From Chiloscyllium plagiosum (lineage: Eukaryota), in assembly GCF_004010195.1 (NCBI RefSeq), contig NC_057740.1, forward strand, positions 31,563,257 through 31,627,160: a DNA stretch of 63,904 nucleotides, written 5' to 3'. The notes beneath the pieces are model-generated. The model saw nothing but the letters and a program-made list of their open reading frames with translations, ran no database searches and was not told where the DNA came from. Position 1 is the first letter of the stretch, and every line of letters starts with the position of its first letter. Shown here piece by piece: positions 14,481 through 48,619 of the stretch. The position numbers and the translations under genes were made by a program.

Positions 14481-16289
14481 GTAGATACTATTCCACTAGT
14501 ACTAGCCACTGGTGCATAGCCAATATTAATTGTTTTCTTGGCAATGTTTAAGAATGTGTATTTTCCAATGATAGACAGTGGGCAGCAATCATGAGCAGAA
14601 TGCTTATTCTAGCTGAGGCACAGAAAACCATTTGTATCTCTCAATTTGATTCCTTGTCTGAGGTCAGCCAACTGAACAAAGACTGGGAACCTGGGGCTTC
14701 TATTATTGCTCTACAACTCACTGGCATTATTAACTGAACCACCAGTTAGAACAGAATCCTTTTCAGGCAACAACAATCAAACCTGTGTGGTGTTTTACCC
14801 GTCCTGCAAATCAACAGATTCCCAGGTACAGTAAGCCTTTAAATGCAGTGTCTAATTCAAACTGTTCACATTTATTCATTCATCTTTAAAGACAATCAAC
14901 TGTGAAAATGTTAAAACTGGAGTTTTTGGCAGACACACAAGACCAAGCTGCAGCTAGAATTAGTCAACTGACTCACCTATGTTCATTCATGGCTGCTGTT
15001 ATAACAGGTCACGCTAACCCAACCACAGGGTCATGCACACATCAACTCATAATCATAAATTCCTTGTTAGTATAAACACACAATAATAATTTGTGTTACT
15101 GGCTTGTAAGATGTTAAAGTGTGCAAGATTTACAGCATTTATAGTTTCTCACAGGGATGGGCTGACCTTATTTCCCCACAATTGGCAATCTATGCCTAAA
15201 CAACAAGCAAGCACAGCCAATACGATAAGGGCAAGCTGCAGACAACCAGACAATTTTGGCTCCTGTTGAAATTGTTGTTGGCTGCAGGAGTTAAAGCAGA
15301 GAATTGTTGGGATTCAACCAAGTAACATGTGATTCCCCACAGCCAAGGTCTTCTTCAGCTAAGTGTGAAGGCCACCCAGCAGGATAAGGGATTGTGATGT
15401 CAATCTCCTCAACACCTTTCCTCTTCTGTTACTAGCCAAAACAACTGACAATATGACAAGGGTATTGTAACTGAAACTGGGCACACCCCTTCCAATCAAA
15501 ATACGAAGATAGCTATCTCTTTCATAGCTCCAGTTATCAAGGCACAACGAGTGAGCTGCCCATTGGAAAACACTTTGAAGCTAAACACTGGAATGTTTCC
15601 AAAGTAGCCATTATGTTAATTCCCTTCCAGCCAAAGAAAGCTGGTATCTCTATTGTTAATTCTGTTCGGTCAACACAGACAGTATTTGTGTAAGCGCTAC
15701 AGACCTAATCCCATTTATGGCTTTTATATTTTAGGCATTTTTCAGCCTTTAACAACCTCCCAACTATTAAATGTGCTATCTTCAAACGTTTGTTGCACAA
15801 TACTCCAGATCAGAGCGTTGATGTGGTTGGCTGCTCCTGTACATTTTCAGGTTTCTACTCACTTTGATTTCAATAATGCGAAGGTCAAGCATATTCTGAA
15901 TCCAGTGATTCACATTCCACCAGAAAACCCATTTATTTTTCCCAAGGGGACCAGAAATATGATGGAAGCCCTCATACTGTGGAACGTAGATAATAAGGAC
16001 ACTCTGTATTCAGTGCAAACCACTTCCCTGACCTTGCACAAATAAGCCATAAAACCATAGAAAATAGGAACAGTGCCTCAAGCTTGCTCCACCACTCAAT
16101 AGGATCATGGCTGATCCAATGTACTCCTCATGTCCACTCTCCTGCCTTTTCCCTATACATAGGACCATAAGATGGTGGGAATATTTTGGTCACTAGAAGT
16201 ATTTGGATAAAGACTTCCCATTCGGCTGCAGCCTCCAAAGATTTCCAAGTGAGAGACCAATGCTTTTTGATAATAGACTTCTAAGATTG

Positions 16290-16493
16290 GAATCTAGAGT
16301 GTGGTGTTGGAAAAGCATAGCCAATCAGGCAGAATCTGAGGAGCAGGAGAATCCACATTTTGGGCATAAGCCCTTCATCGTATACCCGAAACATCAATTC
16401 TCCTGCTCCTCAGATGCTGCTTGACCGGCTATGTTTTTCCAGCACCACAACTCTCCACTCTGATCTCCAGCATCTGTAATCCTCACTTTCTTT
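16290..16493. mobile_element. Family A head-to-head fold-back pair
   Basis: Minus copy ends at 16379, GTATA filler, plus copy starts at 16385. TSD TTCTAAGATTG at 16279-16289 / 16494-16504. Confidence 0.9.
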
Positions 16494-16869
16494 TTCTAAG
16501 ATTGAAATGTCTATCTGAAGCACAATCAGTTATTGCCCTGGATTGATGAATTTGAAACAAGCTGCCAGATGAAGTGGTTTTGCGTTCTCCTTAACTCCCC
16601 TAAGAACCTGCTGCCTTCATTTCAATGCCAGATGCATATTGACTGTGAGTAGTGACCGGGCTTTCCTGGGCCTACAGGAAAAAGGAATGCATTATTCAAG
16701 ACCATATATCACTGAATCGGTGGAGTTCAGATTGTTGAAGAAGATTGTTTCATATTTGCTCTTGGGAAGGAGTAACTAGGCAACACTCAATGCCAAGGGA
16801 TTTCACAATCCCATTAGACCTTAGGGAAAACATAAAAACACTGGCATTAGCATGGGAACAGTAAGATAG

Positions 16870-17330
16870 TTAGAATGTTATTGTATCAGTAACCCAGAGG
16901 CCTGCGCTAATGCAATTGAGACATGAGTTCAACTCCCATCATTCTAACAGGGGAATTCAATTCAACTAATTAAATAAATCTGGAATCTTAAAAAAAACTA
17001 GCCTATATAATCTTAACCCTGAACTCACCACAGTCCTCTGGAGGAAGAAATCTGCTGTCATTACTCAGTCTGGCCGACATGTGGATATGTGGACATGTGG
17101 ACTTTCTTATGTATGGGGAAAAGGCAGGAGAATGGACATGTGGATATAGCGATATGCAGGACACGTAACTGCTCTCTGAAATGGCCCAGCAAGCCTTTGA
17201 GTTTTATCAAACTGCTAGCTCTACCATGGGATCTGAGCTGTTCAGGAAGGCTGTTCACCACCACCTTCTCTGGAGTAATTAGGAATGGATGCTGGACATT
17301 CCCAAAAGTGACCACACCACATGAGTGAAC
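16870..17330 (+). mobile_element. tRNA-headed SINE with L2-type tail
   Basis: cagtaacccagagg...gagttcaactccc head, gaaatctgctgtc core and L2-type tail. Contains a small internal (GGAYATGT) tandem at about 17076-17147. Confidence 0.7.
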
Positions 17331-18016
17331 AAAAAGAAACAAATTTTGCTACTGGTTAACATCAGAATGCCCCTAAAGATCACCATACAGTACTGCACTA
17401 TACTGATAAAGATCAGGTGAGTGTCTGTTATTATCAGGGAAAAAAAAACAAATATACACTGTGGAGTTGGGCCATTGGGTTTAGATACCTCAGAGAAAGC
17501 AACAAATGAGAACACTGAACCACGAGGGATTTTTCTTCCCTCTTGCTCTCTTCTAAAATGAACATAAAACATTACAGATCATGCACTCACATATACATCA
17601 GAACTAGAACCTAACGATTCAAAATTCAGTTCACTGACATTTTCTTTTCTTATCTAATTTGGTCATCCTTCAAGTAACAGGGAGTATAAACTTGTTAAAG
17701 TCAGCCTTGTACTTACAGAAGCAACTTGCCTTGGCTTTATCCTTGAAATATATCCCGCAGGTGCAAATTTGGAGATGAATAGTTCAAAAATGGCCCTCTT
17801 TAAAAGAAAAGAAGAAACTCAGCGACAAAATGTCTGGCCAAATGGCTGGGTCAATTGCCTTTGGGCACCACGTCAACTCGTGGCCAAGGCCAAGTCATGT
17901 CATGTTGCAACGTTCAATTGGGGAGAGATTATAGTTGGCCACCCTCATCAGAAGGTCAGCCATGCCTTTTAAAAAAGAACTAAGAACTCATACACACATG
18001 CTTACTGAAAATTCCA

Positions 18017-18189
18017 ATAACACCAGGTTATAGGCCGACAGGTTTATTTGAAATTGCAAGGTTTCAGAGCGCTGCTCCATCCTCATACCTGAAAGCTTAC
18101 AATTTCAATTAAACCTGCTGGAATATAATCTGGCATCACTTGATTTTTGACCTTATCCACCCCAGTCCAACTCCGGCACCTCTACATCT
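18017..18189. mobile_element. Family D PLE head-to-head fold-back pair
   Basis: Inverted arms (caccaggttataggccgacaggttt / aaacctgctggaatataatctgg) joined in the hammerhead at about 18085. TSD TGAAAATTCCA at 18006-18016 / 18190-18200. Confidence 0.85.
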
Positions 18190-18334
18190 TGAAAATTCCA
18201 GGCCTCTATTGAATTGACACACTGTAGTGGTGGAAGTACAGCAATGTTACAAATTAGTTTAACAGTAAGAAAAGGATGTTGATTCCTGATGGGCTGAGAG
18301 GTTCCAGCTGACTGAATGCAGTGTTCATGTCAAT

Positions 18335-19070: not shown

Positions 19071-19902
19071 TATGCACCATCTTGGCATTTACTCAATATT
19101 TGAAATGCTGGCTCTTTAATGGCCAGCAGATTGTGCATTCTAGCTGGGAGATGTTTTTAAAAGTGTTTTCATAGGAAGCTTGGAAGACTACTTTGCACTG
19201 AATGTATTTCACCCATTGGCAATGTTTGTCTTTGATTCAAAATCTATGCCAAGTTTACATTTGGCTTCACATTGATGCATGTTGTTTACATTTCATTAGT
19301 AGTGAGAGCAAGGAATCAAGTTAGCCAGTTCCAAATCCAGGCTCACAGATGAAAATGCCTCATAAAATATCCCAGACATGTAAAACACAAAAGCTAGCTG
19401 GATCCAAAGAACATGCAAGAGAAGTGATGTCAGACCCCTGCAGAGCACCGGACCATGTGTCACAACATCACTGAAGGACTTCCTCAGTGAAATCCTTGGT
19501 CTAAACATCTTCCTTAATGACTTTTTGTACAATCAAAGACATGGAAAGGGCTTTTCCCAGACCATTCCACAATGTTTAACTCATTCAGAACACTAATGAC
19601 CACTGCAGTACCACCCATGAATGGAACTGGACAGAACTCCATACGAAAAAAGCCACATAGAAAATAGGAATGGTATAGGCTATTCGGCCCCTCAAGCCTG
19701 CTCCACCATTCAACAGGAACAAGGCTGACCTGCCCCAGTTTTCAACGACAACTCTTCATTCATGCGACATAGCCCTCAACTTCCTGATATTTCAAAAATC
19801 TATGTACCTCAACTTCAAAGGAGGCCAAAATTGTACACAGTACTCTTGGTGCGACCTCACCAACACCCTGTCGGGTTGTAATAAGGCTTCCCCATTTTCA
19901 AA

Positions 19903-20161
19903 GTTGAGACATGTGGTACTGAAGAAGCACAGCAGGTCAGGCAGCATCCGAAGAGGAGGAGAGGCGATGTTTCGAGCATAAGCCCTTCATCAGGAATGTG
20001 GGGGAGGGTGGAGGGAAGGAGATGGGGGTTGAGAGATAAGTAGGTGGGGTTGGGGGAATGGTAGCTGGGAAGGCGATCGGTAAATACAAGTGGGAGGTGA
20101 TGGTGATAGGTCAGAGCTGAGGGTGGAGTGGATAGGTGGGAAGGAAGATGGACAGGTGGGA
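19903..20161 (-). mobile_element. Family A-related PLE pLTR
   Basis: Reverse complement reads ATTC-CTGATGA-AGGGCTTATGCTC-GAAACATC. TSD CATTTTCAAA at 19893-19902 / 20162-20171. Confidence 0.9.
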
Positions 20162-20379
20162 CATTTTCAAACTCCAACCCTCATGCAAATACGCCAAAAT
20201 TCTCTTTGTTTTCTTAAATACCTGCTGCCAACTACAATGTTTCATCCACAAGAACACCCAATTCCCTTTGTACTGCACTTTGTAGACTCTTGCTCCATTT
20301 CAATAATAGTCTGCTTTTCGACTGTGCTCCTACTAAAGTGCATGATCGCACACTTTCCTAAATTAAACTACATCTCCAT

Positions 20380-20655: not shown

Positions 20656-21076
20656 AAAAATTGCCATGCTTTGCCCGCTCACTCAACTTATTTATATCTC
20701 CTTGCAGATTCCATATATCTTCATCACAACATCCCTTCCAACTATTTTTCTAGGGTCAGCAAATTTGGATACATTATACTCCATCCCCTCCTCCATTTCA
20801 TTAATACAGTGATAATAATAGAGCAAACAACTGAGCCCCTGGGACTGATCCTTGGGGAACTCCACTAGTTATTTTATTACAACCTAAAAAAGACCATTTA
20901 TCCTGATTCTTTCACTTCTATCTGTTAACAAATCCTCAATCCATTCTGATACATTATCCAAGGCCATGACCTCCAAATTTGTGCAATGATCTTTTCTATG
21001 GCACCTTTGAAAGTCTAAGATACTGTACATCTTCCAGTTCCACTTTATTAACGCTACTTGTTACATCCTCAAAGAT

Positions 21077-21167
21077 GGGAATGTGTTGCTGGAAAAGCGC
21101 AGCAGGTCAGGCAGCATCCAGGGAACAGGAGAATCGACGTTTCGGGCATAAGCCCTTCTTCAGGAAG
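21077..21167 (-). mobile_element. Family A mini-insertion (91 bp)
   Basis: TSD ATCCTCAAAGAT at 21065-21076 / 21168-21179. Confidence 0.92.
21132..21166 (-). ncRNA. Minimal hammerhead ribozyme motif, intact core
   Basis: Reverse complement reads TTC-CTGAAGA-A-GGGC TTAT GCCC-GAAA-C-GTC-GATT. Stem I is weak. Confidence 0.7.
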
Positions 21168-21741
21168 ATCCTCAAAGATCCCTAGCAAACTTGTAAAACA
21201 TGCCTCACCTTTCACAAAACCATATTGATCCTGATTGTGATACATTATTCTAAATTCCCAGCTATTGCTTTTTTAATAATAGATCCTTTGTTAATCATAG
21301 GTAGTTCATCCATTTCACAGAGTTGTCTTTTTTGACCAGAATAAGTTTTTGCTGCACTTTATGAAATATCTGGTTGTTTGCCATTGATTTTCCCCTTAGT
21401 TTATTTTCCCATCCCACTTTAGCAACTTTTTCTTCATATTTCTGTCATTGTCCTTATCTAAGTTGAGAGCATTGATTTGAGACCTGAGTTGCTCTTTAAC
21501 AAATTGAATTTGAAACTCTACTATGTTGAGATGGCTACTTCCTAGCGGGTCCTTCACTGAGATCTCTTATTAATTCTACCATAATCCAGTCGGTTAATGT
21601 TACAATGTTATACTCTGCAGATCACGACTGTAACCTAAGCCGCTCTACAACACTTAAAGTCTGCTTAAATATGGAAGGATGAGATGACAAAGTAACACCA
21701 GAGTGGATGTACATTTGCTTGCTGGGCTGGAAGGTTTGTTT

Positions 21742-21781
21742 TCAGAGGTTTCGTCACCATACTAGGTAACATCATCAGTGA
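21742..21781 (-). ncRNA. Family E hammerhead motif (one stem III substitution)
   Basis: Reverse complement reads TCA-CTGATGA-T-GTTACC TAGTAT GGTGAC-GAAA-C-CTC-TGA. A more decayed twin lies at 24086-24125 (+). Confidence 0.7.
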
Positions 21782-22254
21782 GCCTCTGGTGAAGCTCTGG
21801 TGGTATGGCCTACTTTTTATTTATGTGCTTACGATTCCTTGAGTTGGCGATGTCATTTCCTGTGATGATGTCATTTCCTGTTATTTTTCTCAGGGGTTGG
21901 CAAATGGGATCCAAGTTAATGCTTCTAGGAATTCTCATGCATGTCTCTGTTTGGCTTGACCTAGGATGGATGTGTTGTCCCAGTCAAAATGGTGTCCTTC
22001 CTCATCTGTATGTAAAGATACTTGTGAGAGTGAGTTATGTCTTTTTGTGGTTAGTTGATGTTCATGTATCCTGGTGGTTAGTTTTCTGCCTGTTTGTCCA
22101 ATGGGGTGTTTGTTATAGTTCTTGCAAGGTATTTTGTAAATGACATTAGCTTTGCTTGTTGTCTGTGTAGGGTCTTTCAAGTTCATGAGCTGCTATTTTA
22201 GTGTATTAGTGGGTTTGTGGGCTACCATGCCAAGAGGTCTGAGTGGTCTGGCAG

Positions 22255-23990
22255 GTAGCAACACTTACCAACAAGTGGCGATAGATCTGACCCCACAACT
22301 AGAGAAACGAAACACAGCCCTTCTCAAAAAACTTCAGAGATCTGGAGAAATAAATAAGACTGACTTCCAAACAATGAAACCAGACAGATCCGACTCACCA
22401 CGTTTCTATGGATTAACCAAAATTCACAAACCAGGAGCCCCCCTCAGACCCATAGTCTCACTACCTGGAACACCAACTTACAGATCGGCCAAGGAGCGAC
22501 ACCAAAGACTAAAACATTTAGTAGAAGACTCACACCACTCCATCCACTCCACCCAAGAATTCCTGAAGACCATCAAAGACTCCAAGATAGAAGAGGATGA
22601 AATAATGGTCTCCTTTGATGTAACAGCCCTGTGCACATCCATCAACATCAACCTGGCCAAGGAAACACTGATTACCCTATTAGAAGAACCAAAGACACAT
22701 ACACCAAACACCACCAACTTCATCAGCAAGGACAGTATTGTCAAGCTAGTGGACCTATGCCCCACTACCCACTCCACCTTCAACAACAAAACCTACAGAC
22801 AAACCAACAGAACACCCATGGGATCACCGATATCAGGGTTCTTAGCAGAGGCAGTAATGCAGAGACTCAAACAAACAGCTCTACCAACCATCTAACCTAA
22901 ATCTTGGGTCAGCTACGTGGATAACACCTTAGTCATCACTAAACGAGACAAATCAGAGGAAACCTTCAAGACCATCAACAATATGGTTATTGGCATAAAA
23001 TTCACTAAAGAGGAAGAAAACAACAACAAACTGCCATTCCTAGATGTCACAGTACAGCGAACAGCCAATGGGGAATTTCAAACCAGCGTCTACAGGAAAA
23101 CAACACATAAGGACCAAATATTGAACTACAGAAGCAATCATCCCAATGCCCACAAACGAAGTTGCATTAGAACATTATTTCAATGAGCCACCACACATTG
23201 CAGCACACAGGAACTACAAAGAGCAGAGGAAAATCACTTTTACAGTGTATTCAAAAAGAACGGGTACCCAATGAACACAGTCCACCGATTTCTCAACAAC
23301 AAACCCAAACAAGCAGACAAAACATGTCCAGAAACCCTAGCCACTCTCCCCTACATCAAAGACATCTCAGAAATGACTGCCAGGCTACTCAGACCTCTTG
23401 GCATCATGGTAGCCCACAACCCAACCAACACACTAAAACAGCAGCTAATGAACTTGAAAGACCCTATACAGAAAAACAAGCAAAACTAATGTCATTTACA
23501 AAATAACTTGCAAGAACTGTAACAAACACTACGTTGGACAAACAGGCAGAAAACTAGCCACCAGGATACATGAACATCAACTAGCCACAAAAAGACATGA
23601 ACCACTCTCACTAGTATCTTTACATACAGATGAGGAAGGTATGGAATGAGCTGCCAGAGGATGTGGTGGAGGCTGGTACAATTGCAACATTTAAGAGGCA
23701 TTTGGATGGGTATATGAATACGAAGGGTTTGGAGGGATATGGGCTGGGTGCTGGCAGGTGGGACTATATTGGGTTGGGATATCTGGTCGGCATGGACGGG
23801 TTGGACCGATGGGTCTGTTTCCATGCTGTACATCTCTATGACTCGATGACTGGGACAACACATCCATCCTTGGACAAGTCAAACAGAGACACACATGAGA
23901 ATTCCCAGAAGCATGGCATTTCAACCGGAACTCTATCAACAAACACATTGACTTGGATCTCATTTACCACCCCCTGAGAAAAAGAACCAG
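22255..23990 (+). pseudogene. PLE reverse transcriptase / GIY-YIG endonuclease, disrupted
   Basis: PRFYGLTKIHKPGAPLRPIVS, SFDVTAL, PMGSPIS, YVDN, LPFLDV, YRKTTH, NHPNAHK and VIYKI..C..YVGQTGRKL..RIHEH, with stops and frameshifts. Confidence 0.95.
23639..23851 (+). mobile_element. CR1 3' end inserted in the PLE GIY-YIG domain
   Basis: VWNELPEDVVEAGTIATFKRHLD and ctatgactcgatgact tail. Absent from the inverted arm. Confidence 0.95.
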
Positions 23991-24219
23991 AAATGACATC
24001 ATCACAGTAAATGATGTCAACAACCCAAGGAAACCTAAGCACAAAAATAAAAAGTGGGCCATACCACCAGTGCTTCACTGGAGGCTCTCTAATGATGTTA
24101 CGTACTACGGTGACAAAACATCTGAAAACAAACCTTCCAGCTCAGTGAGCAAACTTACATCCAGAACCCCAACCAGAGCTATAAATCATCTCAAAATTTG
24201 CTAACACCAGAGTGCTAGC

Positions 24220-24630: not shown

Positions 24631-25022
24631 TAAGCCAGTGTTAGCTACTGAACATCTCTATCAAGAGACTGCCTAGCTTTCACCATCATTAAATTCTCCA
24701 CAACTATCCAACTATAATTAGATAGAAGGTAAATCAATCTAAAAGAGCAGAAGGGAGACCAGTTACTTGAGTTGTTCTCCTCTACATCCTTTAATAACTC
24801 CTCACCATCTGCAATTTATGCTCAATTTATCTGACCAGGCACAGTTACATCTCTGAAGAAGCTTGGCATGATTGAGCAGATCGTTTGATTGCTCCCTGGT
24901 GATTTGGCAAGATGTCACTTCATTCCACCATTAGTGAACCAATGCTGTAGTATGTGACCTACAGGATGCACTATAGCATCTCATTTAGATTATCTCGACA
25001 ACACCAATTGCCTCTGCAAGTT

Positions 25023-25054
25023 CTGAAGAAGGGCATGTGCCCGAAACGTCGAAT
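25023..25054 (+). ncRNA. Minimal hammerhead motif, intact core
   Basis: CTGAAGA-A-GGGC ATGT GCCC-GAAA-C-GTC-GAAT. Confidence 0.7.
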
Positions 25055-25110
25055 CTTCTGTTCCCTAGATGCTGCCTGACCTGCTGTGCTGTTCCAGCAA
25101 TAAAGTTTCA
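25025..25110 (+). mobile_element. Family A mini-insertion (86 bp), young subtype with AATAAA
   Basis: Perfect 14-bp TSD CCTCTGCAAGTTCT at 25011-25024 / 25111-25124. Confidence 0.95.
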
Positions 25111-25654
25111 CCTCTGCAAGTTCTACCAACTTGAATAAATAAAGCACAAACTATGAGAACACAATTAGCTTCTTTAAGGCATGCAATGATTGCTAAGCCA
25201 TTGATATCATTGGCTCAAGAGCCTGCAAGTCCAGAGCCACAGCATTATAGGAGCACCAGTTGCAGATGCACTGTAGAAGTTCAAGGATAAAGTTCACCAT
25301 CAATCCACTCAGAGAAGCTAAGACAATCAAAGGCAACATTGGCAAATGGACCCCTCCTGAAAACAAAATTTTAAAGGCTGCTTATCAACTCTAGTTTTTC
25401 TTTTCCTCTTATTTTACATAGGACATTCCTCAAGATATTTGAAGAATCCTTTTCATTGCTACCACAGTGAAGGAGCAGAAAGTATTTGGGGCTAGGTGGT
25501 GCCATATACTATTCAAAAGAATAACAAATATCAGGCAGCAAGCTGCAAGCTCTAATTCAAGCTCATGGCTCTGTTAGTCTTCATCAACTGCTCAAGATTC
25601 TTCCTCGTGTTTCATTATGCTATTTGAATCGTTCAATTGAATTACAGCCTCACA

Positions 25655-31322: not shown

Positions 31323-32144
31323 ATCAATATCTAATCAATAAAATTGCAGTGAGCAAAGCTTTGCATTTGAATGCATGTTCTTGAGAATGAAAGTCAAGTT
31401 CCCTTTGAATTGTAATTGGTCATCGCTCCTTATTTCCATCCTGTCTCCTTATAGGTGTTTTCCGTTTCCCCTTGTTAGTGCTCACAAGATGTTTATCCCC
31501 TTGAGGGACACTGTAAGTATGCAACTGGTTGTTATGCATTTCATCGGATGAAAACATTGATCTGTGGTCCACAGCTACAGGAGAAAAATAAAAGTCATGG
31601 AAACAGTGTTTACTTTTGGAAGAGAAAAACCTCCAAAAGAGGAAAGTAGAAAGACCCCAGGAGATCTACCATTTATGGTTTCAGAATCGTCAGTCAGTTT
31701 TGTTCTGCTTTTAGCTTTCTTTATTGTTAATGGTAATGAGAGCTTTATGGTCAAAGACTCAGACTCAACTTTCCTTCAAGGAATCAGACAAGCTTTACAT
31801 CTCGTTAACGGCAATGAAGTCAATGCTCAATGACTTTTCTGTGAGTTTATGTAGTGGTCAATTGTTCCATAAAAATGCACAGACACTACAGAAGCTACTG
31901 AAAGTTGACCCATAAGCATCAGTGCAGATATTTTGTGATGGGTGCAATATTTTATAAGTACACCTGTTGCACGCTTAGAAGCTAGTGGTAATTCTAAAAT
32001 ACAATAGTTACATTTTTATAGATCTTTAAAGCAGTTAAACATCCCAACAATTTATGAGAGACTTATCAAACAAAATCTGGCACCTGCCTTATTATACAGA
32101 CAATGATAGCCTTTTTTGACTGCAAGCAGACTTACTCCACAACT

Positions 32145-32268
32145 AGGGGAAAGTGAGGACTGCAGATGCTGGAGAGTAGTCGAGAATGTGGTGCTGGAAA
32201 AGCGCAGCAGGTCAGGCAGCATCCGAGGAGCAGGAAAATTGATGTTTTGGGCAAAAGCCCTTCATCAG
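32145..32268 (-). mobile_element. Family A fragment
   Basis: Homology stops exactly at TCATCAG (rc CTGATGA, 32262-32268). GAAA is decayed to AAAA. Confidence 0.9.
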
Positions 32269-35190: not shown

Positions 35191-35201
35191 TTCTGGAATG
35201 A

Positions 35202-35325
35202 CCTGAAGAAGGGCTTATGCCCGAAACGTCGATTCTCCTGCTCCTTGGATGCTGCCTGACCTGCTGCGCTTTTCCAGCAACACATTTTTCAGCTCTGATC
35301 TCCAGCATCTACAGTCCTCAGTTTA
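35202..35325 (+). mobile_element. Family A fragment with intact hammerhead core
   Basis: CTGAAGA(35203-35209)-A-GGGC TTAT GCCC-GAAA-C-GTC(35228-35230), then the family tail. Confidence 0.92.
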
Positions 35326-35484
35326 TCACATAAGTGGATATTAGGCAAATGACCAAAAGGAAAACACAAGTTGTTAGGAATGTTGTAAGAGAATATGAAG
35401 TTAGAGAAACAGAGAGTTTGGGGAGAGAATTCTAGACATTAATACTTGGCAGGTAAAGGTTTGACTGCCAATAGTAGCATAACA

Positions 35485-37179: not shown

Positions 37180-37278
37180 GAAACAAAAGCAGAAATTGCA
37201 GAAGAAACTCAGCAGCTCTGGCAGTATCTGAGGAGGGAAAACAAAGTCAATGTTTCAGGTCCAGTGACCCCTCTTCAT
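37180..37278 (-). mobile_element. Family B pLTR fragment, decayed hammerhead
   Basis: Homologous to 11605-11710. Reverse complement reads TGAAGAGGGGTCACTGGACCTGAAACATTGACT. Confidence 0.75.
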
Positions 37279-37895
37279 TGAATTTCAAAACTGGCATGAA
37301 AAATGGTCTACTTCTGCTCCTACTTCATATATATTTATGTCTGAATAGCCTGTTGTATTTGTTCCTGCTGAGAACAACTAGGCTTGAACATAAAGCCAGT
37401 GTTGTAGGCTGGAATGACCTTGAAAATTGTCTCACATTAACACATTACCCTCTTTTTGAAGTAATGACCAACAAAGTAAGCAAGTGCCCAACACTTTGTG
37501 TCCCGGTCCATTGTCAGCCTGAGGGCTGAGCTAGCTTTGGCTTCCAAGACCTTTGTTGAAGTCATTGTCCTTGCCTAGTCCCACTTGATCCTCCATAGCC
37601 CTGCGAGTTTACTTCCTTCAAGTGACTGTCCAATATCCTTTTAAAATCATTGATTGTTTCAATATCCATCCTCGTCAGCACAGAGATCCAATTTATTATC
37701 ACACGCAACAATGGAAGTTTCTTCCTCATTTTCCTCCCTCCAATTTTTACCCCAAATTTAAAATCTGTCCTTCTTTCATCAATTAATGGGAAAAGTTTTT
37801 CCCTGCCTACCTTACCTAATTGTATAATAATTTTGTAGTTGAAACTTTATTGCTGGAACAGCACAGCAGGTCAGGCAGCATCCAGGGAACAGGAG

Positions 37896-37931
37896 ATTCG
37901 ACGTTTCGGGCACAGGCCCTTCTTCAGGAAT
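37896..37931 (-). ncRNA. Minimal type-I hammerhead ribozyme, mirror copy
   Basis: Exact reverse complement of 38114-38149. Confidence 0.8.
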
Positions 37932-38113
37932 GAGCAGAGAGTGTTCAGCAGGAGAAGATAAAAGGTAGGGAGGAGGGACTTGGAGGAGGGGCGTTGGAAA
38001 TGTGATAGGTGCAAAGAGGTCTTGACCTCTTTCCACCTATCACATTTCCAACGCCCCTCCTCCAAGTCCCTCCTCCCTACCTTTTATCTTCTCCTGCTGA
38101 ACACTCTCTGCTC

Positions 38114-38149
38114 ATTCCTGAAGAAGGGCCTGTGCCCGAAACGTCGAAT
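38114..38149 (+). ncRNA. Minimal type-I hammerhead ribozyme, fully intact
   Basis: ATTC-CTGAAGA-A-GGGC CTGT GCCC-GAAA-C-GTC|GAAT. Stem I is ATTC/GAAT, stem III is palindromic ACGT, predicted cleavage after 38145. Confidence 0.8.
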
Positions 38150-38659
38150 CTCCTGTTCCCTGGATGCTGCCTGACCTGCTGTGCTGTTCCAGCAATAAAG
38201 TTTCAACTTTGATATCCAAATGAATCCAACAAGAACTGGACCAAGCATATGTGGTACTCATAATCTTCTTCATCCTAAGTATACGCATGATTTTACTACA
38301 ACTGCTAAGTATTTCATCAGTAATATTTTCAGCAACATAACACAAAACATCGCAGATAAGAAAAACTGCAGCATATTAACATGCCAAATTTCCCCTAAAG
38401 TAAATGCATTAAAATTCCATCAAATTTGACAATATTGTTATGTATTTGGCTTTAAGGGGTTAACACGTAGGGGGTTCCATACAACAGCCAAGCAGGGTGA
38501 GATCAATAGTTGTGATGTTGAGAAGATATGCTCTTCTTCATTAGGGTAAATAAAACCACAGAAAGTAGACAAAATCAAACACAAAATATTGCTGAGGAAA
38601 GGAGTGAACAAAGACAGAAATGGGAACTATTTAAATGTAAATCTATGATTTGTTGTACG

Positions 38660-38810
38660 TATTTTGAACTGGTCCTCCTGGGAGCAGATGCGGTGGAGAC
38701 GAAGGAATTGGGAGAATGGGATGGCGTTTTTACAGGGGGCAGGATGGGAGGAGGTGTAGTCCAGGTAGCTGTGGGAGTCGGTTGGTTTGTAGTAGATGTC
38801 CGTGTTAATA
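38660..38810 (-). mobile_element. PLE RT thumb-region fragment
   Basis: INTDIYYKPTDSHSYLDYTSSHPAPCKNAIPFSQFLRLHRICSQEDQF. Confidence 0.9.
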
Positions 38811-39689
38811 ATTTTGTACACTAGCTCTAACAAATCAGCCCTTCCAGATCATTTACACCTAGGATACCTTTCCAGTGTAATGTTGTAACAAATCATTTCC
38901 CTTCCATCGGATCTATTCCGGTAAATCACCACTGCATCGTCTGGAGAACCTTCACCTTTCTAACATGTGATGACAAGAATCAATGTAAAACCTAACTTCC
39001 CTGCTTTCATAACAATTTATGAAGCACTGGACCCCATGTGCTTTCCTTCTCAATGTTTTATATACACGTCTCTCAATATCTGGTATTTATGTAGAATAAG
39101 TGAAAGAAGCTCTTATACACATGCAACAGTTGCACTTTGACCCCGTCCTACTGCTCTGAGTGTCAAGAATTGGCTCACCAGTCTGCTTTACCTCCTTAAT
39201 TGCAATCAGCCCCTTTCCCCAACTTGGGACTTTGACAATTACATTGTCTGTTTAGCTAAGCAATTCCTCCCACCCCCCACACCCCCCACCCCCCAGCTGC
39301 CTTGAATGAAAACCATTGTAGCATAAAGATGTAAGCAGTTCTGGAATGTGTTTGATGTCCTCTATTGTCTCAGAACTAATATGACACATGAGAATACATA
39401 CATTTTTAATAGCTGCTTTAGGTATTCCAGCTAATTACCTCCAACAACTTCCCAGGCAGGTTGTGTCTCTTTGGAAATGAATCCTTTGTTGACTAACTCT
39501 AAAAGCTGAATATAAATTAAACCATAATCCTGTCCAGGCTTGCAAATGAAATCCTACTGGACGAATGTGTCACAGTGACAGCAACGATCGTACAATATCG
39601 TATGATAAAACCTACAGTGACCTTGCGTTATTTCTTAATTCAGGAAGAGAAGTTTGAATTTATAAAGCACCCTTTCAGAACTGTAGAAA

Positions 39690-40100
39690 ATTGCAATAAT
39701 TTGAAAGATCTTAATCATCAATTAAAATGTAGGAAATACTTGAATTCCAAACCATGTTTCTTGACCTGATGGCTTTCGAAAGCATTTCTTACAGTCAGAG
39801 AAATACTTTCGAAGTGCGTCACTGTGCAGGAAAAATAGCTGACAGTAAATTCCCATATGCAGCACCATGACACTGAGCAGATATAACCTATGTTAGTTAG
39901 GTTTGGGATAACTTCACTTCTCCTTTGCAAAATAGTGCCAAAAGATTTTTTACATGTGCCTGAGAGACTGGATGGGCCCTCAGTTCATCGTCCCATCTGA
40001 AAGATGTCATCTCCAACTGTGCAGTACTCCCACAGTACTACGTGTCTTGCCAACCTTGATTTTTGTCCTGGAGTGGCAGGGGTGCTACCAAGTGAACTAC
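39690..40100 (-). mobile_element. DeuSINE-type SINE
   Basis: tttcgaagtgcgtcactgt... and catctgaaagatgtcatctccaactgtgcagtactccc. Confidence 0.7.
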
Positions 40101-42304
40101 AACTGATTACTTCCCAATTCTGACTGCTATTTTTTCAAGCCTATATCATCATTGACAGTATGGTATTACAAGTGAACCTGGATTGGAGTTCTAAACATGA
40201 TATCAACTTTTAAAGTACAAAATATCTGTTCTTCTGCTCTTGGGATTCGTCTTTATAATAGAAGCCTGCACTTAAAGAGCATTATCAGACAGAAATTGCC
40301 TTTCCACATGATGCAACATAAAATTCTAGCAGTGACCTACAATCAGTCAAAGAAATCTCCTACTCTCAGCAGACAGTGGGTGCCACCTATTGGTCTGAAA
40401 GAGATGGCCCAATAGAAGCAATTTGGACTCAAATGATGCGGTAAATCGTGACAAAGTAGCAACGATTACCATGGTAACCACAAATCCACACCAATAGCTT
40501 AGGGAAAACAATAGTTAAGTAAAAATACTTCAAAAGCACCTAGATCACTAACATGCATCCAGTAGGTTATCTTTGCTACTGATTTCAAGCAGCAAATGTA
40601 TCCTGTTTGCAGGCAGTCTAGCACAAATAAAAATGTTACATTAAACAGTCATTGTTACCATGCAGTAGCAAACGCAATCAATTTTGGTGCAGAAATTTGT
40701 TCCGCTACATGAACCTGCTAAAATTATAACAGATGAAAAGAATGTCATGAATATATTTACATAAAGATTGAATAACAAAATTAACTAGAAGCACTCAAGC
40801 GGCAGTGAAATTCCCATGGAATTCCCTAATAAGTCAATTCAATATTTGCAAGAGAAAGCAGAAGCCTGTACATATTGCTTACGTCCCATGAATTAATAGG
40901 AATTGAGCAGATCACAATATTTCACTGGAATCTGGGATGTGAAAATAAAGGGCTTTGAAACCATATGCGTTGCATTAATAATGAATGTACTGAGATTCCT
41001 CTGTTCAGTATTTCAGCAAAGGCAGTAACTCATTTTGGACCCATATGAGGGAAGATTTATCTTTGATGTGGGTAAAAACAGACAAGAGATTCCACATAAT
41101 TTTTATTTCCATGTAAAAAGAAATTAGATGTATTGCATAGTAAGCCATGATCCTTTGCCCACCATTTTACACATTCCCCACACTGTCCCCAAAGTTGGAT
41201 TGCACCTCTTCCCTAACGCAGACTGAAAAGTTTCCTTGTCTCATGCTTTGGGGTCCTTATCTTGGGAAATGAAGCTCTCCGCATTTGGTGCTCCCAGGTC
41301 AAGTACCTGCCACCACAACGGGGAATAAAGCATTCATTGCTGTGTGTCAATAATGTGCTTACCCCACAGTTTGACCCATATTGCTCCAGTTTTGTGTTTT
41401 TTTTTTAAATTCCATTCCTCATGCCAGCTATCCTGCGATCTCTGTGAATGAGATTGCCAGTCAGTGTCAGATTTTCGCTGTGTGAATCTACTCACTATGA
41501 TTGACACTGCCCAAATTGATTTCACAGTGGACATTTATAACCAGCAGAGACAGGAGATTTTCATCCATTTAGGCTGAGATGGATTTGCATCCAGTTCCCA
41601 GAGATGAAAGAAGAGCGTCAAACCACTCTGGCACCCAGTTCCAAACAAAGAATTAGTGTAAGAATATTAATGTATCCATTACTAAAACAAGGAAAGATTT
41701 GCATTTAAATGGCACAACATTAAATGCCTCTAAGCACATCTAATTCAAAGTGCATTACATATGGCATACAGTCTGTAATGTCTTATAGGCAAATACAGTA
41801 ACCATTGCAAAATCCACAAATGGCAAATGATGATAGAATAGTAGAACATCAGAGAACCACTCTCCACAGATGCTGCCAGACGTGCTGAGTATTTCAATAC
41901 TTTCTGCTTTTGCATCATAGAGGACATCCATTAAACCCATCATGTCCGTCTTAGCCGTTCAAAAGAGGTATGCATTGAATTTGGTTACCCTCCTCGAGAT
42001 CTGCAAATGTTTCATTTCCAAGATTATATCCAGTTTCTTTTGGAAGTAATGATTTAAGCTTCATCCAATCAAGCGGTGAATTCCTAAACAATTAGTTAAG
42101 CAGATTACGGGTCATTGACTGAGGGAGGGATGCTTACTCAGGCGCTGAGAAAATTCTGTGATGTTTTTGATTATGGTATGTTGCAGGGTGGGGAGAGGAA
42201 TCATTGAGCAAGCTGCACTGTAAGTTCATTGTCTATTCTGAAGAACTGCATCTCTGACAAAACTGGTGTGTCAGGATAGTATATATCCTGGAAATAGGTT
42301 TCAA

Positions 42305-42618
42305 CCCATAGTCAAACCACAGTTATAATCTCTTCCAATCTCTTCCAGTGGGCAGATGATTCAAAAGCTTAAAAACATGGACCAGCAGATCCAAGGACAG
42401 CTTCTTCCCTGCTGTTATTAGACTTCTAAATGAACCTTACAAATTTCAAATTTAATGTTGATCTTGCTCTTTCTGCAGCCTTAACATTGTAGTCCCTGCT
42501 CTGTTCCACTATCCCTACGTACTTTGCATAGTATGATCTGCCTTACTGATGCAAAACAAGACTTTTCACTGTACCTAGGCACACATGACAGTAATAAATC
42601 AAAGTAAATCAAAATCAA
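42305..42618 (+). mobile_element. Rex1/Babar LINE 3' end
   Basis: Clear homolog of 20380-20655 (SFFPAVIRLLN-like terminus and taaatcaaa tail). Confidence 0.8.
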
Positions 42619-43339
42619 GAGTACCGCCAGTTGATGCATTGGGACCACATTGCAATCAAAAGAAAAAGATTGGACCAATAAACAAACCCAAACTGTCCTT
42701 TTCCTCGACAGCTCTGTGACACATTGGCTGGGTCTACTGTGCTATCATAGGAATAGCAACAACAAATTACATTCAAACTGAATCCCAAGGCATTTCCCAG
42801 AGGCACAAGGGAAGGAAATGGACACGGAACCAAAGAAGGAAATATTGGGAAGGTGGCTAGAAGTTTGGTCTCAGGATTAGTTTTGTGTTGGGTAAGGGTT
42901 TGGGCTGGGAGTAACATTAGAGAGTGGGAGAGAAGGTGTGGCAGAACGTTACACCTATGTGGAGAGAAACAAAAAGTGTGTATTACTGGGCAACAGGTGG
43001 CAGGAAGAAATTGGGAGGAAAAGGCCTGAGAGAAGGCAAAAGAGAAAAAAACTAATGGAACTAAAGGGATCAGGATAGCAGCCAGATTGGGTGAGTGGCC
43101 AGAGAGGGATTTTGAGTTACAAAGGCAGAGGCGCAAGCTGGGCTATAAACAGAGGATCTCCCCATTTTCCCTAGGCACATTGTATCGAGCAGGTCAATTT
43201 TTTTACTGTAAGTTACAGCTTCTTAATATTACAATGAAGTGTTACAATATCTAAATGACCTTTTATTTTTCCAATTCTGATTTCTCGCACAATGCTGCTT
43301 TCCTTAAATTACCACCTTTGTCTATGCCTGGGTGGTAAG

Positions 43340-43585
43340 TTAAAATCTGGAATGAGAAGCTAGCTAACGATTACTAAGTCATCTTCTGTAGATTGTTGTA
43401 ATAACTAATTTGGTTCACTGATGTCTTTTAGGGAAGGAAATCTACCATCCTTACCTGGTCTGACTTATATGTGACTGCAGAGCTCCAACAACATGGTGGA
43501 CTCTTAAATACCCACTGAGCTATTAGGGATGGGCAACCAATGCTGGCTAGCCAGCTATGTCCAAAACCTGTGAATGAATCTTTTA
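43340..43585 (+). mobile_element. SINE 3' part (L2-tailed family)
   Basis: ggttcactgatgtcttttagggaaggaaatctaccatcc...tgaatgaat. Confidence 0.75.
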
Positions 43586-43922
43586 AAAAATTTCCTCCCT
43601 ACAACCTTTCTCTCTCTCTAGCTTTGATACTCTCCTTAAGATCTATCTCACACAATAAAAAACTTTAGCTGACATCTCATCATGTGGCTCAGTTTTAAGG
43701 TTTGTCTGATAACACCCCCTTGAAGCTCTGTGTGACATTTTGTTACATGAAAGGCAATGTAGGTATTTTCTATTGAACCTGTTCAGAGATAGTCTGATAC
43801 ATCTATGGAGCATGGAGAACTTGAAACCAGGCCTCTTGGCTCAGAAATAGAGACACTACCACAGCCCTCTGTTGTGTAATTACATATAGTGATATTGGTA
43901 ACATGTTGAGTCTGGATTACAA

Positions 43923-44081
43923 TAGGGAGAAAGTGAGGACTGCAGATGTTGGAGATCAGAGTCGAGAGTGGGGTGCTGGCCTTTCATCAGGAGTAATGCA
44001 GGGCTTATGCCTGAAACATAAATTCTCCTGCTCCTCGGATGCTGCCTGACCTGCTGTGCTTTTCCATCACCACACTCTCCA
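43923..44081. mobile_element. Family A head-to-head fold-back pair
   Basis: Minus arm (internally deleted) ends TCATCAGGA at about 43992 and the plus arm starts at about 43994. TSD CTGGATTACAA at 43912-43922 / 44082-44092. Confidence 0.9.
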
Positions 44082-44589
44082 CTGGATTACAACAGCTGGT
44101 TAGCAATCAGTTTACATTTTGTTTGCATGGGATTTGGTTTTGTGAGGATTGGGTGGGAAGTAAGAAGAAGGATTTGTTTTTCACTGCTTCTATAACAGGA
44201 TCCGTTCCCCCAACCCTTTCATTGCTGTCTAAGACAGGCAGCCTGGGTAACCCTTAACATAAAGAATGGACACTTTGTCAGGAAAAAAGGATGGACACAC
44301 ATATAATGCTGGCACTCCATTCACTCCTTTTAGAAAATTGCTTATAATACTTCGATCCAAAATCACAGAACTGTACAACCGAAACAAGATACAAGTCTGA
44401 TGAGAGCGAAAACCCACATTCCCATTTTCACCTTGTACTTTACATTTAGAATAGGGAGAGTCGGAGTGTTGTCAATCACTTAATTTAACAGTGACTCATT
44501 TCAAATAATGTACAACACTTACAAGCTTACATGCCTATATACAGTATACACATACACTAATAACCCAATACATCCACAGGCATACCTGC

Positions 44590-45115
44590 ACATTGTGGCT
44601 TCAAAAACAAATCAGATGCTGAGAATTCTGTGATTCACCTCCTGACTACCCAAAAACCATCCAACATCTACAATGTGCATGTCAGGAGTGTGATGGATTA
44701 CTCCCCACTTGCCTGGATGAGTGCAGCTCTAAACACACTCAAGTAGCTCGACATCTTCCAAGACAAAGCAGCCTGCTTGATTGGCAATCCATCCATCACT
44801 TTCAACACATTCACTCTCTCCACTACTGATGGAGAGTAGCAATAGGGTGTACATCTACAAGATGCACTGTAGTAATTCAACAAGATTTCTTCAACAGCAT
44901 GTTCCAAACTCATCACATCCACTACATAGAACATCAAGGACAGAGGACACAAGGGAACACCACCATCTGCAAGTTCCACTCCAAGTTACACACCAAGTTA
45001 CACTTGGAACTGTATCTATGTTTTTTCACTGTCAGTGGGGCTGAATCCTGGACTTGCCTTCCTAACAACAGTGTACCTACATCCCAAGGACTGCAGCAGA
45101 TGAAGCAGTTCATTA
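44590..45115 (+). mobile_element. L2-type LINE 3' fragment
   Basis: Homolog of 5505-6070. Confidence 0.8.
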
Positions 45116-45352
45116 CTGTTGTACGATGTAATGCTTCTGAAAGAGTTAGTGTTGAATTAGCATTGAGCTCCATCCAATCTTACATTGTTGTGTAGGGAGA
45201 ATTGAGCAGACTAACCTGAGGTCCCAATGGACAGAGTCATCTCTGGCTCATGATTGTCATTATGTCTTGCTAGCCCAATGTAATTTGCATCAAAGCTATC
45301 ATTTAATAAATTACATCTTGTTATGTAAGAAAGATGCCTCTCTTCATTAAAA

Positions 45353-45882
45353 TCTTTGAGGAGAAAGTGAGGACTGCAGATGCTGGAGATCAGAGCTGAA
45401 AATGTGTTGCNNNCTGAGACAAGGTGGGGGAGGGGAAATGAGGAAACTGGAGAAATCTGAGTTCATCCCTTGTGGTTGGAGGGTTCCTAGGCGGAAGATG
45501 AGGCGCTCTTCCTCCAGCCGTCGTGTTGCTATGGTCTGGCGATGGAGGAGTCCAAGGACCTGCATGTCCTTGGTGGAGTGGGAGGGGGAGTTGAAGTGTT
45601 GAGCCAAGGGTTGGTTGGGTTGGTTGGTCCGAGTGTCCCAGAGGTGTTCTTCCTGACCTCTCCGTCCCCACCCCCACTCCGGCCTATCACCCTCACCTTG
45701 ACCTCCTTCCACCTATCGCATTTCCAATGCCCCTCCCCCAAGTCCCTCCTCCCTACCTTTTATCTTAGCCTGCTGGACACACTTTCTTCATTCCTGAAGA
45801 AGGGCTCATGCCTGAAACGTCGATTCTCCTGCTCCCTGGATGCTGCCTGACCTGCTGCGCTTTTCCAGCAACACATTTTCAG
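45353..45882. mobile_element. Family A PLE: minus arm with GIY-YIG C-terminus (contains NNN gap) plus plus-strand pLTR
   Basis: Minus strand reads LAQHFNSPSHSTKDMQVLGLLH...LEEERLIFRLGTLQPQGMNSDF. Plus-arm hammerhead at 45790-45825. TSD CTCTCTTC(A/G)TTAAAA at 45338-45352 / 45883-45897. Confidence 0.92.
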
Positions 45883-46042
45883 CTCTCTTCGTTAAAACTC
45901 AATAGTCATTTTCCTAGCACTGTTAATTGGATATCCCTTAGACTCATTGCAGGTGGATTACGGATTTTGTGCCAGGAGCTCTGCGTTCAATTTGTATTTG
46001 CTCAGATATATAACAATATCTCTGAACAGTTGGTTATAAAAT

Positions 46043-46165
46043 ACAGTCGGTTCTGATATAATGTAATAATCCCATTCTCGTGCAATCTTGCATTATAAGA
46101 ATATCGCGCAATAGCCACACCAGTGAAACTAATGGGGCTGGAATAGGATTATAGCCAATACAGGT
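46043..46165. mobile_element. Possible Tc1/mariner (Tigger-like) terminal fragment
   Basis: Starts TA-CAGTCGGTTCTGATATAA. I did not find a partner TIR. Confidence 0.4.
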
Positions 46166-47355
46166 AAGAAAAGTTTGCTTTGTATAAATAAATTCTTCAA
46201 TCATGTGAAAGCCAATTCATTTTGAAGAGACATTTGGAATAGCAGAACTGGCTGTACTGGGAAAGCTGGATCCCCGGGTATGCTTGAAGAGTGAGCACTC
46301 TGGACCTGCCAGTATGTTTCAGGCCTCCTGTGATCACTGCAGGTGCTGGGGTGCATCATCACCCCACAGAATATTATTTGCAACTTTCCATTGGATTTTT
46401 GACTTTTGTTACAGTGTCCATTACCTGCCCTAATTTTCTTTAATTTGTTCATTTTTTAAAGCATTTTAAAGTTTGGTAGCCCACTCTTCCCTAACCTGAA
46501 GCCTCCAATGTTTGGTACCTTAACATGTTATAGCTATCGCCTTCTTAAGAGCAGTTAGGGAGGGCAAAAAATGCTGGCCCAGCCAGCAACACCCACATCC
46601 CATAATGGAATAACAAAAGAAATACCCAAACCTGCTAATACATGTAAGAGAAATCAGATCTTAAACAAATAGAATCATCAGTGCTTGAGGATGAAGTGTT
46701 GGTTTCATTCATCTTGTTTGAATATTCATCAGACATGGCAACAGGAGCCAGTTATTCCATCAGACGTGATTTAAATTAAAGATTTTCTCCATTTACATGC
46801 ACAGGATATGCAGATACATCACTCATGTTGATGTATCTTTATTGCGACAGAGGTCCATGTAAACCATTTACTTCAACATTTTAGTCTGGCCCATTACTAC
46901 ACATCAAGGTGGATTACCCAGTTTAGGCTGACACATCCTGTCTGTGAAAATGCATTGCTGCATAAAAGCTGCCTAAACTGAGAGTGCATGTGATGCTTTG
47001 ATCTCAGATAATGCAGTCACCCATCTGCAAAAATAAAGATATGGCAGTAAGTATATACCACAAGCATGACTGCACAAAGTAACAGTCACATTTTTGTTAT
47101 CCCACAGCCTGCATTCGCCTAGCTCATTCAGCAACAGACGCTGAAGGACGTTTTAAATTTTTATCTTCCTTTTCTCACTCAGGTTGGGAAGCCCTTGATT
47201 CAAAGATCTAGTGTGACACTAAAGGCAACCCACTGCCCTTTGGTTTCTTGTCCAATCCTTACATGTAAAACTACTGAACTTAAGTAGATCGTTTATTCAT
47301 CACAGCCAAATACATTTTTGGGATTGCCTGTTGGTTATACACAAGAAACATGCAC

Positions 47356-47500
47356 GGACAGACAGACAGACACACACACACACACAGAGATACACACATA
47401 CACACACAGCACAAAAATACAGACACATATACAGCTAAATATACAATTCATATTCGCATAGAAACACACCTACACTCAAAAACACACATATATGCACAAA
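47356..47500. repeat. Compound (CAGA)n/(CA)n microsatellite, decaying
   Basis: gacagacagacagacacacacacacacacagaga... Confidence 0.9.
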
Positions 47501-48140
47501 CATGTATGATATAAGAACACATAACTATTCATTAAGAAAAGCAATGCACGAACACAATTTTTGCAGTTCTGAAAGAATATTTTTGCGAACTAACCACTAT
47601 GCAGTTCATTTAAATTTCCATTTCTGCCTGTAAATATTATAACAATGCAAACATAATTTTAAGATATGACCTTGCAAGTTTACAATAGAAGCAGGATCTT
47701 TCATTTTGTGTTCAATTAGTTGTGGAAGGCACCCAGTTGCAGGAGTGGAATGCCTTGACTGAGACTGTTGGCAGGAGAATCACAGATTCCGGGATCCTGC
47801 CATTAACAGTCTGGCAGCTAAAGTGCATCACTCAATATATTCCTTTTCTGTGGTTGATTTAAATTGAGCCAGCACTGCTGGTGTGCTTCAAGGAGTGCTG
47901 ATTTAAATAGGTAAATTGATTAGGTTGTGGCTGATCTATTGCATGTTGATTAAATCTGTTCACCAAGCAGTGGGGAGACTTTGGTGAACACATGTCAGTT
48001 CATAACAACTGAGGAAAAGATAAAGCAAATTCAGGTACAAATAGGATTAACTACTTCATCCTTGGAGCTATTGATGTCTAAAATAGGTTGATAACCTGGC
48101 ACAGTGAAGATACAACAAGGAAGGTATAAAAGAGATTATG

Positions 48141-48334
48141 GTTTAGATCAGAGTGGTGCTGGAAAAGCTCAGCAGGTCAGAGAGCATCCGAGGAGCATGA
48201 AAATCGACAGGAACAGCTTTTGCCTGAAATGTCGATTTTCCTGCTCCACGGATGCTGCCTGACCTGCTGTGTTTTTCCAGCACCACTCTGATCTAAACTC
48301 TAGTTTCCAGCATCTGCAGTCCTCACTTTTACCC
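48141..48334. mobile_element. Family A head-to-head fold-back pair
   Basis: Minus arm ends at GAC (rc GTC) 48208 and the plus arm starts in stem II at about 48216. Perfect 15-bp TSD ATAAAAGAGATTATG at 48126-48140 / 48335-48349. Confidence 0.93.
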
Positions 48335-48619
48335 ATAAAAGAGATTATGACAGCTCACAACTGGAAAAGCCCATTGCAGTCCAACTAACAGGTAGGTCCA
48401 TATGACCCGCAGCCATTATATCCAACATTAGCTCTTCCAAAGAGTCAGAGACATCTCCAGCACAAAAATGGCCCTTTGGCATATCGAGTCTGTGCCAACC
48501 AAAAGCAACCACCTGGATATTCTTCCACAAGTGCAGATCTAAATACTGCCTAGCAGTTAAGGGGTTCTGCCTCGACCACCCTTACAGGCAGTGAGTTCCA
48601 GATTCCCACTTAAGAGGAA

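Follow-up and report, generated by a model that had tools for sequence, protein, structure and literature searches.

Penelope-like elements (PLEs) that carry an endonuclease are known to form compound units. Excerpts of two published accounts (PMC3846280, PMC8557442) describe units in which a 5'-truncated pseudo-long terminal repeat (pLTR) is present as an inverted, head-to-head copy, a tail of 30-40 bp is found at one end, and the whole unit lies within one target site duplication (TSD). The tail is frequently at one end only, and the origin of the tandem and inverted structures is called undefined (PMC8557442, in part), while inverted pLTRs and short 3' extensions are listed as routine PLE features in a section of PMC8969392. 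Here we describe six mirror-image repeats in a stretch of 63,904 nt from Chiloscyllium plagiosum (GCF_004010195.1, NC_057740.1, positions 31,563,257-31,627,160 of the forward strand; hereafter the window). They are one-step insertions of PLEs, and are good examples of the known PLE pattern, not a new kind of element.

A reading made from the sequence alone (the sequence-only reading) had listed six head-to-head pairs, each enclosed by one TSD. All six TSDs are present, with lengths of 11, 11, 13, 11, 14/15 and 15 bp (Table 1; each pair, or dimer, is named here by the first base of its left arm). Among 1500 random pairs of positions with the same spacings and a slack of 6, none had an exact repeat of 11 or more bases; the best exact repeat was 10 bases, and the best with one mismatch permitted was 11. 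Because random position pairs did not reach 11 exact bases, we conclude that the 11-15-bp repeats are not due to chance. Each TSD pair encloses two 5'-truncated PLE ends, placed head to head with their 3' ends outward. An unbiased listing of all inverted pairs within 4 kb of each other recovered four of the six dimers together with their TSDs, with arm-to-arm identities of 63/78 (16290), 37/45 (18017), 480/540 (21706) and 63/69 (48141). Dimers 43923 and 45353 escaped this listing because their arms overlap little, as a result of a deletion in the first and an NNN gap (45411-45413) in the second. No enclosing TSD of at least 10 bp was found around the inverted pairs 7802-8337/10496-11016, 16125/17105 and 59131/60261 or around the palindrome at 52959-53022.

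A seventh insert, at 37838, gives direct evidence for insertion in a single event. We compared positions 34800-48600, a stretch that includes dimers 43923, 45353 and 48141 (16290, 18017 and 21706 lie outside it), with read contigs of four runs from the same organism and two relatives; the results given here are among the 32 contig pieces and the 15 of 7613 joints listed. In runs X5 and X9, which represent two organisms and two studies, one contig goes directly from 37824 to 38806. The 981 bases absent from these contigs are the insert plus one copy of its 13-bp TSD, and because the empty site has one TSD copy, the inverted pair arrived as one event with target duplication. Contigs of run X3 (organism A) enter the insert from both flanks. 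The host DNA captured at 38212-38650 has no match elsewhere in the window and lies at another locus in organism B. We rejected an interpretation of this palindrome as TSD-less or as an artefact; its TSD lies 600 bp further right. The claim that such pairs are single insertions is thus borne out by one TSD per pair, by the empty site of this seventh, family-A element, and by arms matched in subfamily (at 48141, 37838 and 45353; both arms of 48141 have the subfamily-specific CTGATCTAAAC).

The comparison with relatives that the sequence-only reading proposed yielded a one-TSD empty site for the 37838 insert, but none is listed for the three dimers in the compared stretch. The relatives appear to carry those inserts: an X9 contig starts 24 bases inside the right arm of 43923, an X5 contig ends 23 bases inside the left arm of 45353, and an X9 contig, of which 64 letters were left unplaced, reaches 9 bases into 48141 before it stops. 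At the listed dimers, contigs break inside the repeats. Four of the 15 listed paralogous joints are head-to-head, with one arm at the hammerhead edge. Among the joints listed, the head-to-head joint 35202/45791 occurs in 11, 8, 6 and 11 contigs of the four runs, and a joint of a tail to CCTGA (35202, 45359) in 28, 19, 12 and 15; the latter joints are head-to-tail mini tandems elsewhere in the genome. In organism A, a joint from 37922 to 38115 with 3-bp microhomology reaches a contig depth of 1259, against 3-6 in unique flanks, although contig depth is not copy number.

The elements belong to three families. Family A makes up four of the six dimers, together with several solo copies. Its minus-strand coding stretch at 45416-45652 shares 89% identity with the C-terminal end of a protein that its source names Chiloscyllium punctatum, and family-A fragments in the window match a shark protein at 80% and 89%. 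The 79-aa fragment itself has no direct Pfam match. Relatives P0004 and P0005 carry RVT_1 (under the cutoff), and P0004 has PF01541 over the cutoff at its C-terminus. RVT_1 (under the cutoff) and GIY-YIG are present in a Rhincodon relative. Family E encodes a remnant of a reverse transcriptase (RT) followed by GIY-YIG on the plus strand, broken by stops and a frameshift. Its endonuclease exceeds the Pfam cutoff (PF01541, E = 1.2e-5) and its RT falls under it (RVT_1, E = 0.0021), with a visible YVDN core; a PDB sequence search with the RT fragment gave chance matches only. The inverted arm of 21706 is the final 549 bp of the same E element, 480/540 identical. Family D is represented in the window by non-coding ends only (18017-18189 and a solo relative at 53528-53645), and its hammerhead and tail layout suggests that it too is a PLE. 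The proposed PLE identity of three families therefore stands on RT and GIY-YIG coding sequence for A and E, and is without a coding link for D. Atlas matches agree with a PLE identity, as leads only. Coding direction places the 3' ends outward at 21706 (RT then GIY-YIG on plus) and at 45353 (GIY-YIG C-terminus on minus), and homology does so for the other family-A pairs, while for family D this orientation is deduced from the layout of hammerhead and tail.

Families A, D and E each have a predicted hammerhead ribozyme, found by motif scan as CUGANGA-stem II-GAAA with a stem II that folds. These motifs share with the minimal hammerheads of metazoan PLEs the CUGANGA core, an extra base before stem II, a G-C closing pair and a palindromic 15.2-16.2 (PMC4209133, in part), from which they differ in being known from sequence alone and missed by Rfam models. 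Rfam gave nothing at gathering scores in the window, and no hammerhead model was among 50 matches at E up to 5 in 35000-48600. On the 37838 palindrome it gave many sub-threshold miRNA matches, which reflect palindromes alone. Minimum-energy folds of the element ends were not more stable than those of shuffled sequences.

The outer ends of the dimers fall into two classes, and their pairing is regular. In all six dimers, across three families, one arm has a short end and the other a tail end (probability 0.016 under random choice of each end at p = 0.5). Tails are about 35 nt long in family A, 38-40 in E and about 50 in D. Relative to the predicted cut site, the 3' ends of family A lie at about +55 to +65 (one at +72) or at +95 to +101. 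The solo copies bear on what the short end is. All three solos with a plain TSD have a short end, so that the short end acts like a start site of reverse transcription and not like the stopping point of a fold-back. Three of the four complete tail-ended solos have no adjacent TSD. A 10-bp match for the solo at 35202 lies 1.8 kb away at 33414, possibly by chance, and a search for far TSDs found none for the family-D solo at 53528. The fourth, at 11917, has a TSD of 10 bp preceded by 14 additional bases (12026-12039), which resemble the copy's own short end and may be a tiny inverted second arm. This copy sits inside another hammerhead element (11600-12100, motif 11681-11707 on the minus strand), possibly a fourth family.

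The target (TSD) bases beyond 10 short ends are similar to the 8 bases with which the element would continue, with 34/80 matches against 20.3 for random (P 0.0007) and 23.4 for shuffled sequences (P 0.004), in a post hoc comparison with hand-set registers; the reverse-complement control gave 29/80. This resemblance suggests pairing between primer and template, as a lead only. The family-A tail end (43923-43940; 32140-32160 on the minus strand) terminates in CTCACTTTCTCC(C)TAG, which has the look of a splice acceptor preceded by a branch point and a pyrimidine tract. In Drosophila Penelope, the 5' helix of the hammerhead is where an intron end maps (PMC4209133, in part).

The inner ends are less regular. 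Each of the four small dimers has both of its 5' ends 3-35 nt before the hammerhead cut site. As a rule one of the two is at the CUGA edge and the other in stem II, and 0-7 bases between them are unassigned; the exact 5' ends at 18017 and 48141 hinge on whether a small deletion is assumed. Likewise, 4 of 6 complete family-A solos begin at -28 to -31. The junction of 21706 (22254/22255) is within the open reading frame (ORF), with the hammerheads near the outer ends, and the right arm of 45353 has its start some 170 nt before the cut site. The proposal that the two cDNAs join at the ribozyme thus describes the four small dimers, where the joint is at the upstream part of the hammerhead and not at the cut site, and fails for 21706 and 45353. 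Because these two junctions are far from the hammerhead, we regard the ribozyme region as a place where reverse transcription frequently stops but not as one that joining requires, and it carries no implication of self-cleavage. No two of the seven junctions in the window are alike. The extents of the arms differ too–549 against about 1740 bp at 21706, and 230 against more than 300 bp at 45353. Part of one arm may be missing beside the centre (43980, 48209, 18092) in three of the four small dimers; the candidate losses at 48209 and 18092 lie between 2-bp repeats, as expected for decaying palindromes.

Table 1. Dimers, seventh insert, solo copies and associated features in the window.
Feature	Position	Strand	TSD	Ends and other details
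Family-A dimer (16290)	16279..16504		16279-16289/16494-16504, TTCTAAGATTG, 11 bp	
16290 inverted arm	16290-16379			short 3' end; 5' end 26 nt before cut site
16290 direct arm	~16382-16493			tail end; 5' end 14-17 nt before cut site
Family-D dimer (18017)	18006..18200		18006-18016/18190-18200, TGAAAATTCCA, 11 bp	
18017 inverted arm	18017-18085			short end; TA between arms
18017 direct arm	18088-18189			tail ~50 nt
Family-E dimer (21706)	21693..24214		21693-21705/24202-24214, TAACACCAGAGTG, 13 bp	
21706 inverted arm	21706-22254			549 bp; short end; hammerhead motif 21748-21778
21706 direct arm	22255-24201			RT + GIY-YIG remnant with stops, frameshift; tail 38-40 nt
Decayed hammerhead in 21706 direct arm	~24089-24122			
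Later insert in 21706 direct arm	23640..23846	+		207 bp; 3' end of another window repeat
Family-A dimer (43923)	43912..44092		43912-43922/44082-44092, CTGGATTACAA, 11 bp	
43923 inverted arm	43923-43992			tail end; internal deletion; 43980-43992 = hammerhead upstream edge
43923 junction	43993-43999			
43923 direct arm	44000-44081			short end
Family-A dimer (45353)	45338..45897		45338-45352/45883-45897, 14 of 15 bp	
45353 inverted arm	45353-45652			tail end; NNN assembly gap 45411-45413; GIY-YIG C-terminal coding 45416-45652 on -
45353 direct arm	45653-45882			230 bp; short end; hammerhead motif 45794-45821
Family-A dimer (48141)	48126..48349		48126-48140/48335-48349, ATAAAAGAGATTATG, 15 bp	
48141 inverted arm	48141-48209			short end
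48141 junction	48210-48215			
48141 direct arm	~48216-48334			tail end
Seventh insert, family A (37838)	37825..38818		37825-37837/38806-38818, 13 bp	
37838 inverted arm	37838-38021			arms 183/184 identical
37838 direct arm	38022-~38211			
37838 captured host DNA	38212-38650			~440 bp, from another locus
37838 family-A RT-region fragment	38651-38805	-		155 bp
Family-A copy	11917..12049	-	10 bp	tail end; 14 extra bases 12026-12039
Family-A solo	19893..20171	-	10 bp	short end
Family-A solo	21065..21179	-	12 bp	short end; 5' end at hammerhead edge
Family-A solo	25011..25124	+	14 bp	short end; 5' end at hammerhead edge
Family-A solo	32143..32268	-	none found within 2 kb	tail end
Family-A solo	35202..35330	+	none adjacent	tail end

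The later insert at 23640-23846, presumably CR1/L2-like by its resemblance, lies in the GIY-YIG region of the E element and cost the arm about 9 bp; because it is in the direct arm only, it is younger than the dimer. Two other features of the window have a mirror-image layout: a 64-bp AT-rich palindrome at 52959-53022, with no hammerhead and no clear TSD, and two facing LINE-type (long interspersed nuclear element) copies at 6965-8337 and 10496-11016, which are 2.1 kb apart, 85% identical and without a shared TSD (RVT_1, E = 4e-25 at 6965-7831).

We consider priming from both nicked target strands, as put forward in the sequence-only reading, to be the best mechanism for these dimers and probably the right one. 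The GIY-YIG endonuclease would nick both target strands 11-15 bp apart, a spacing taken from the TSDs. Each free 3'-OH would prime reverse transcription on element RNA, one at an inner site to give the short end and the other at an outer start site, 35-50 nt further 3', to give the tail end. Each cDNA would stop independently. A common stopping place would be the upstream part of the hammerhead, a region that probably lies close to where the copied RNA begins or else acts as a strong stop. The cDNA 3' ends would then be joined via 0-3 nt of microhomology or a few filler bases while repair fills the gaps, with foreign DNA sometimes caught between the two cDNAs. We infer the double priming, the order of events, the end joining and the number of RNA molecules. 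We favour double priming because the short end of the dimers is the site where TSD-flanked solos begin, and because a purified PLE protein starts at two sites that bound the tail and extends both strands (PMC11167929, in part). It is also the most economical mechanism and agrees with the in-vitro PLE data. No paper showing that an inverted copy arises from a second nick was found in open-access and preprint text. The term fold-back, used in the sequence-only reading, suits the shape of the dimers but is not the mechanism proposed.

A literal fold-back is the rival that we take most seriously, even though we think it improbable. A cDNA started at the tail would fold or self-prime at a small palindrome near the hammerhead, copy back, and join the second strand; self-priming has been proposed, for an antisense template, in part of PMC3846280. 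Small hairpins are predicted by folding at the hammerhead edge and in stem II, the insert at 37838-38208 is a near-perfect 184-bp palindrome with a 2-nt centre, and the arms are nested in three of the six pairs, as fold-back would have them. This route leaves unexplained why copy-back should stop where solos begin, and it needs jumps of hundreds of bases at 21706 and 45353. At 38022 the direct arm extends 3-6 nt beyond the end of the inverted arm, and at 16290 neither arm contains the other because the short-ended arm extends further 5' than the tail-ended one. Copying of pre-formed hairpins, whether MITE-like (miniature inverted-repeat transposable element) or non-autonomous masters, would account for the recurrent joint 37922-38115 and its depth in organism A, and is unlikely given seven different junctions in the window, TSDs that vary from 11 to 15 bp, ends staggered by the tail, and arms with RT and GIY-YIG coding sequence. 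Two independent insertions at one spot, the second into or beside the first, are very unlikely. PLE protein nicks its own pLTR in vitro (PMC11167929, in part) and the arms of old pairs are 9-19% apart, but there is one outer TSD with no second TSD at any junction, the arms are matched in subfamily and strictly paired as short plus tail, and in the one insert that is absent from relatives they are identical at 183 of 184 positions. Least probable of all is that the assembler made the palindromes. An NNN gap does lie inside 45353 and the 37838 palindrome is 99% perfect; the 9-19% divergence of old-pair arms speaks against an artefact, as do contigs of other runs (X3, X5, X9) that enter the inserts at the same junctions.

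Several observations weigh against double priming. The sample is six dimers (n = 6), and no empty site for 43923, 45353 or 48141 is among the listed contig pieces. Fold-back could also yield the three nested pairs (43923, 45353 and 21706); two more (18017 and 48141) are ambiguous, and 16290, the sole clear non-nested case, could have arisen from a later central deletion. The 43923 junction reads as CAT/ATG self-annealing, which fits either fold-back or the annealing of two cDNAs. The seventh insert is an exception to the pairing of ends: on its right side it terminates in a 5'-truncated end of the ORF, and both arms end near the short site. The arms of the old pairs 16290 and 43923 are not each other's best match. 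In vitro, no difference in start site between the strands was reported, nor any homology of the target with the start site (PMC11167929, in part).

More speculatively, the order in which PLE insertion uses its two RT start sites may be fixed, with the inner one first, helped by partial pairing of the nicked target with the RNA just past that site. On the same tentative footing, the outer tail site may be reserved for second-round priming, from either the other target strand or the end of the first cDNA. If true, a single rule would cover solo copies, tandem pLTRs, inverted pairs and the presence of the tail at one end: priming by the other strand would give a head-to-head dimer, and priming by the first cDNA end a head-to-tail pLTR tandem. 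No paper stating a fixed order of PLE start sites was found in open-access and preprint text, and the genome has enough copies for the rule to be tested. Short dimers that keep intact TSDs are very numerous; they represent natural products of the reaction, and counting them can separate double priming from fold-back.

Other classes of element resemble these dimers in part. MITEs are short, palindromic in appearance and flanked by TSDs, and annotation pipelines can take PLE dimers for MITEs or for microRNA hairpins. We ruled out MITEs by the stagger of 35-50 nt between ends, the TSDs of 11-15 bp, the difference of all seven junctions and the retroelement coding sequence in the arms. In L1 twin priming the second target strand also primes reverse transcription, and an inversion results inside one TSD; there the second primer begins at an internal position on the RNA and the two segments have no overlap, whereas here both start in the 3' end region, so that the end is duplicated as an inverted repeat. 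Non-LTR retrozymes are head-to-tail tandems of hammerhead units (10.64898/2026.07.22.740005, in part) and were ruled out for our head-to-head units.

The nearest relatives are other PLEs. Opposite-strand hammerhead pairs 100-700 bp apart are found in Schistosoma (PMC4209133), and very short de novo PLE insertions, with a median of 128 bp, have been reported (PMC9977147), both in excerpts of those papers. The purified Poseidon protein of Anolis carolinensis, a predicted dimer, nicks and extends both strands, and that system shares with the window two RT start sites that bound the tail, with the hammerhead upstream of them; the hammerhead is dispensable for insertion in vitro, and the available excerpt of that paper does not describe inverted products (PMC11167929). 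Like the seventh insert, PLE units in Adineta have host DNA captured between pLTRs and an empty site with one TSD copy, but with TSDs of 8-10 bp compared with 10-15 bp here, and the excerpt favours self-priming, not two nicks (PMC3846280). The main published pattern, an inverted 5'-truncated pLTR with a one-sided tail and one TSD around the unit, was thus already established (parts of PMC3846280 and PMC8557442); the dimers described here differ from those units in that four of them are just 160-205 bp long and all six have the tail at one end.

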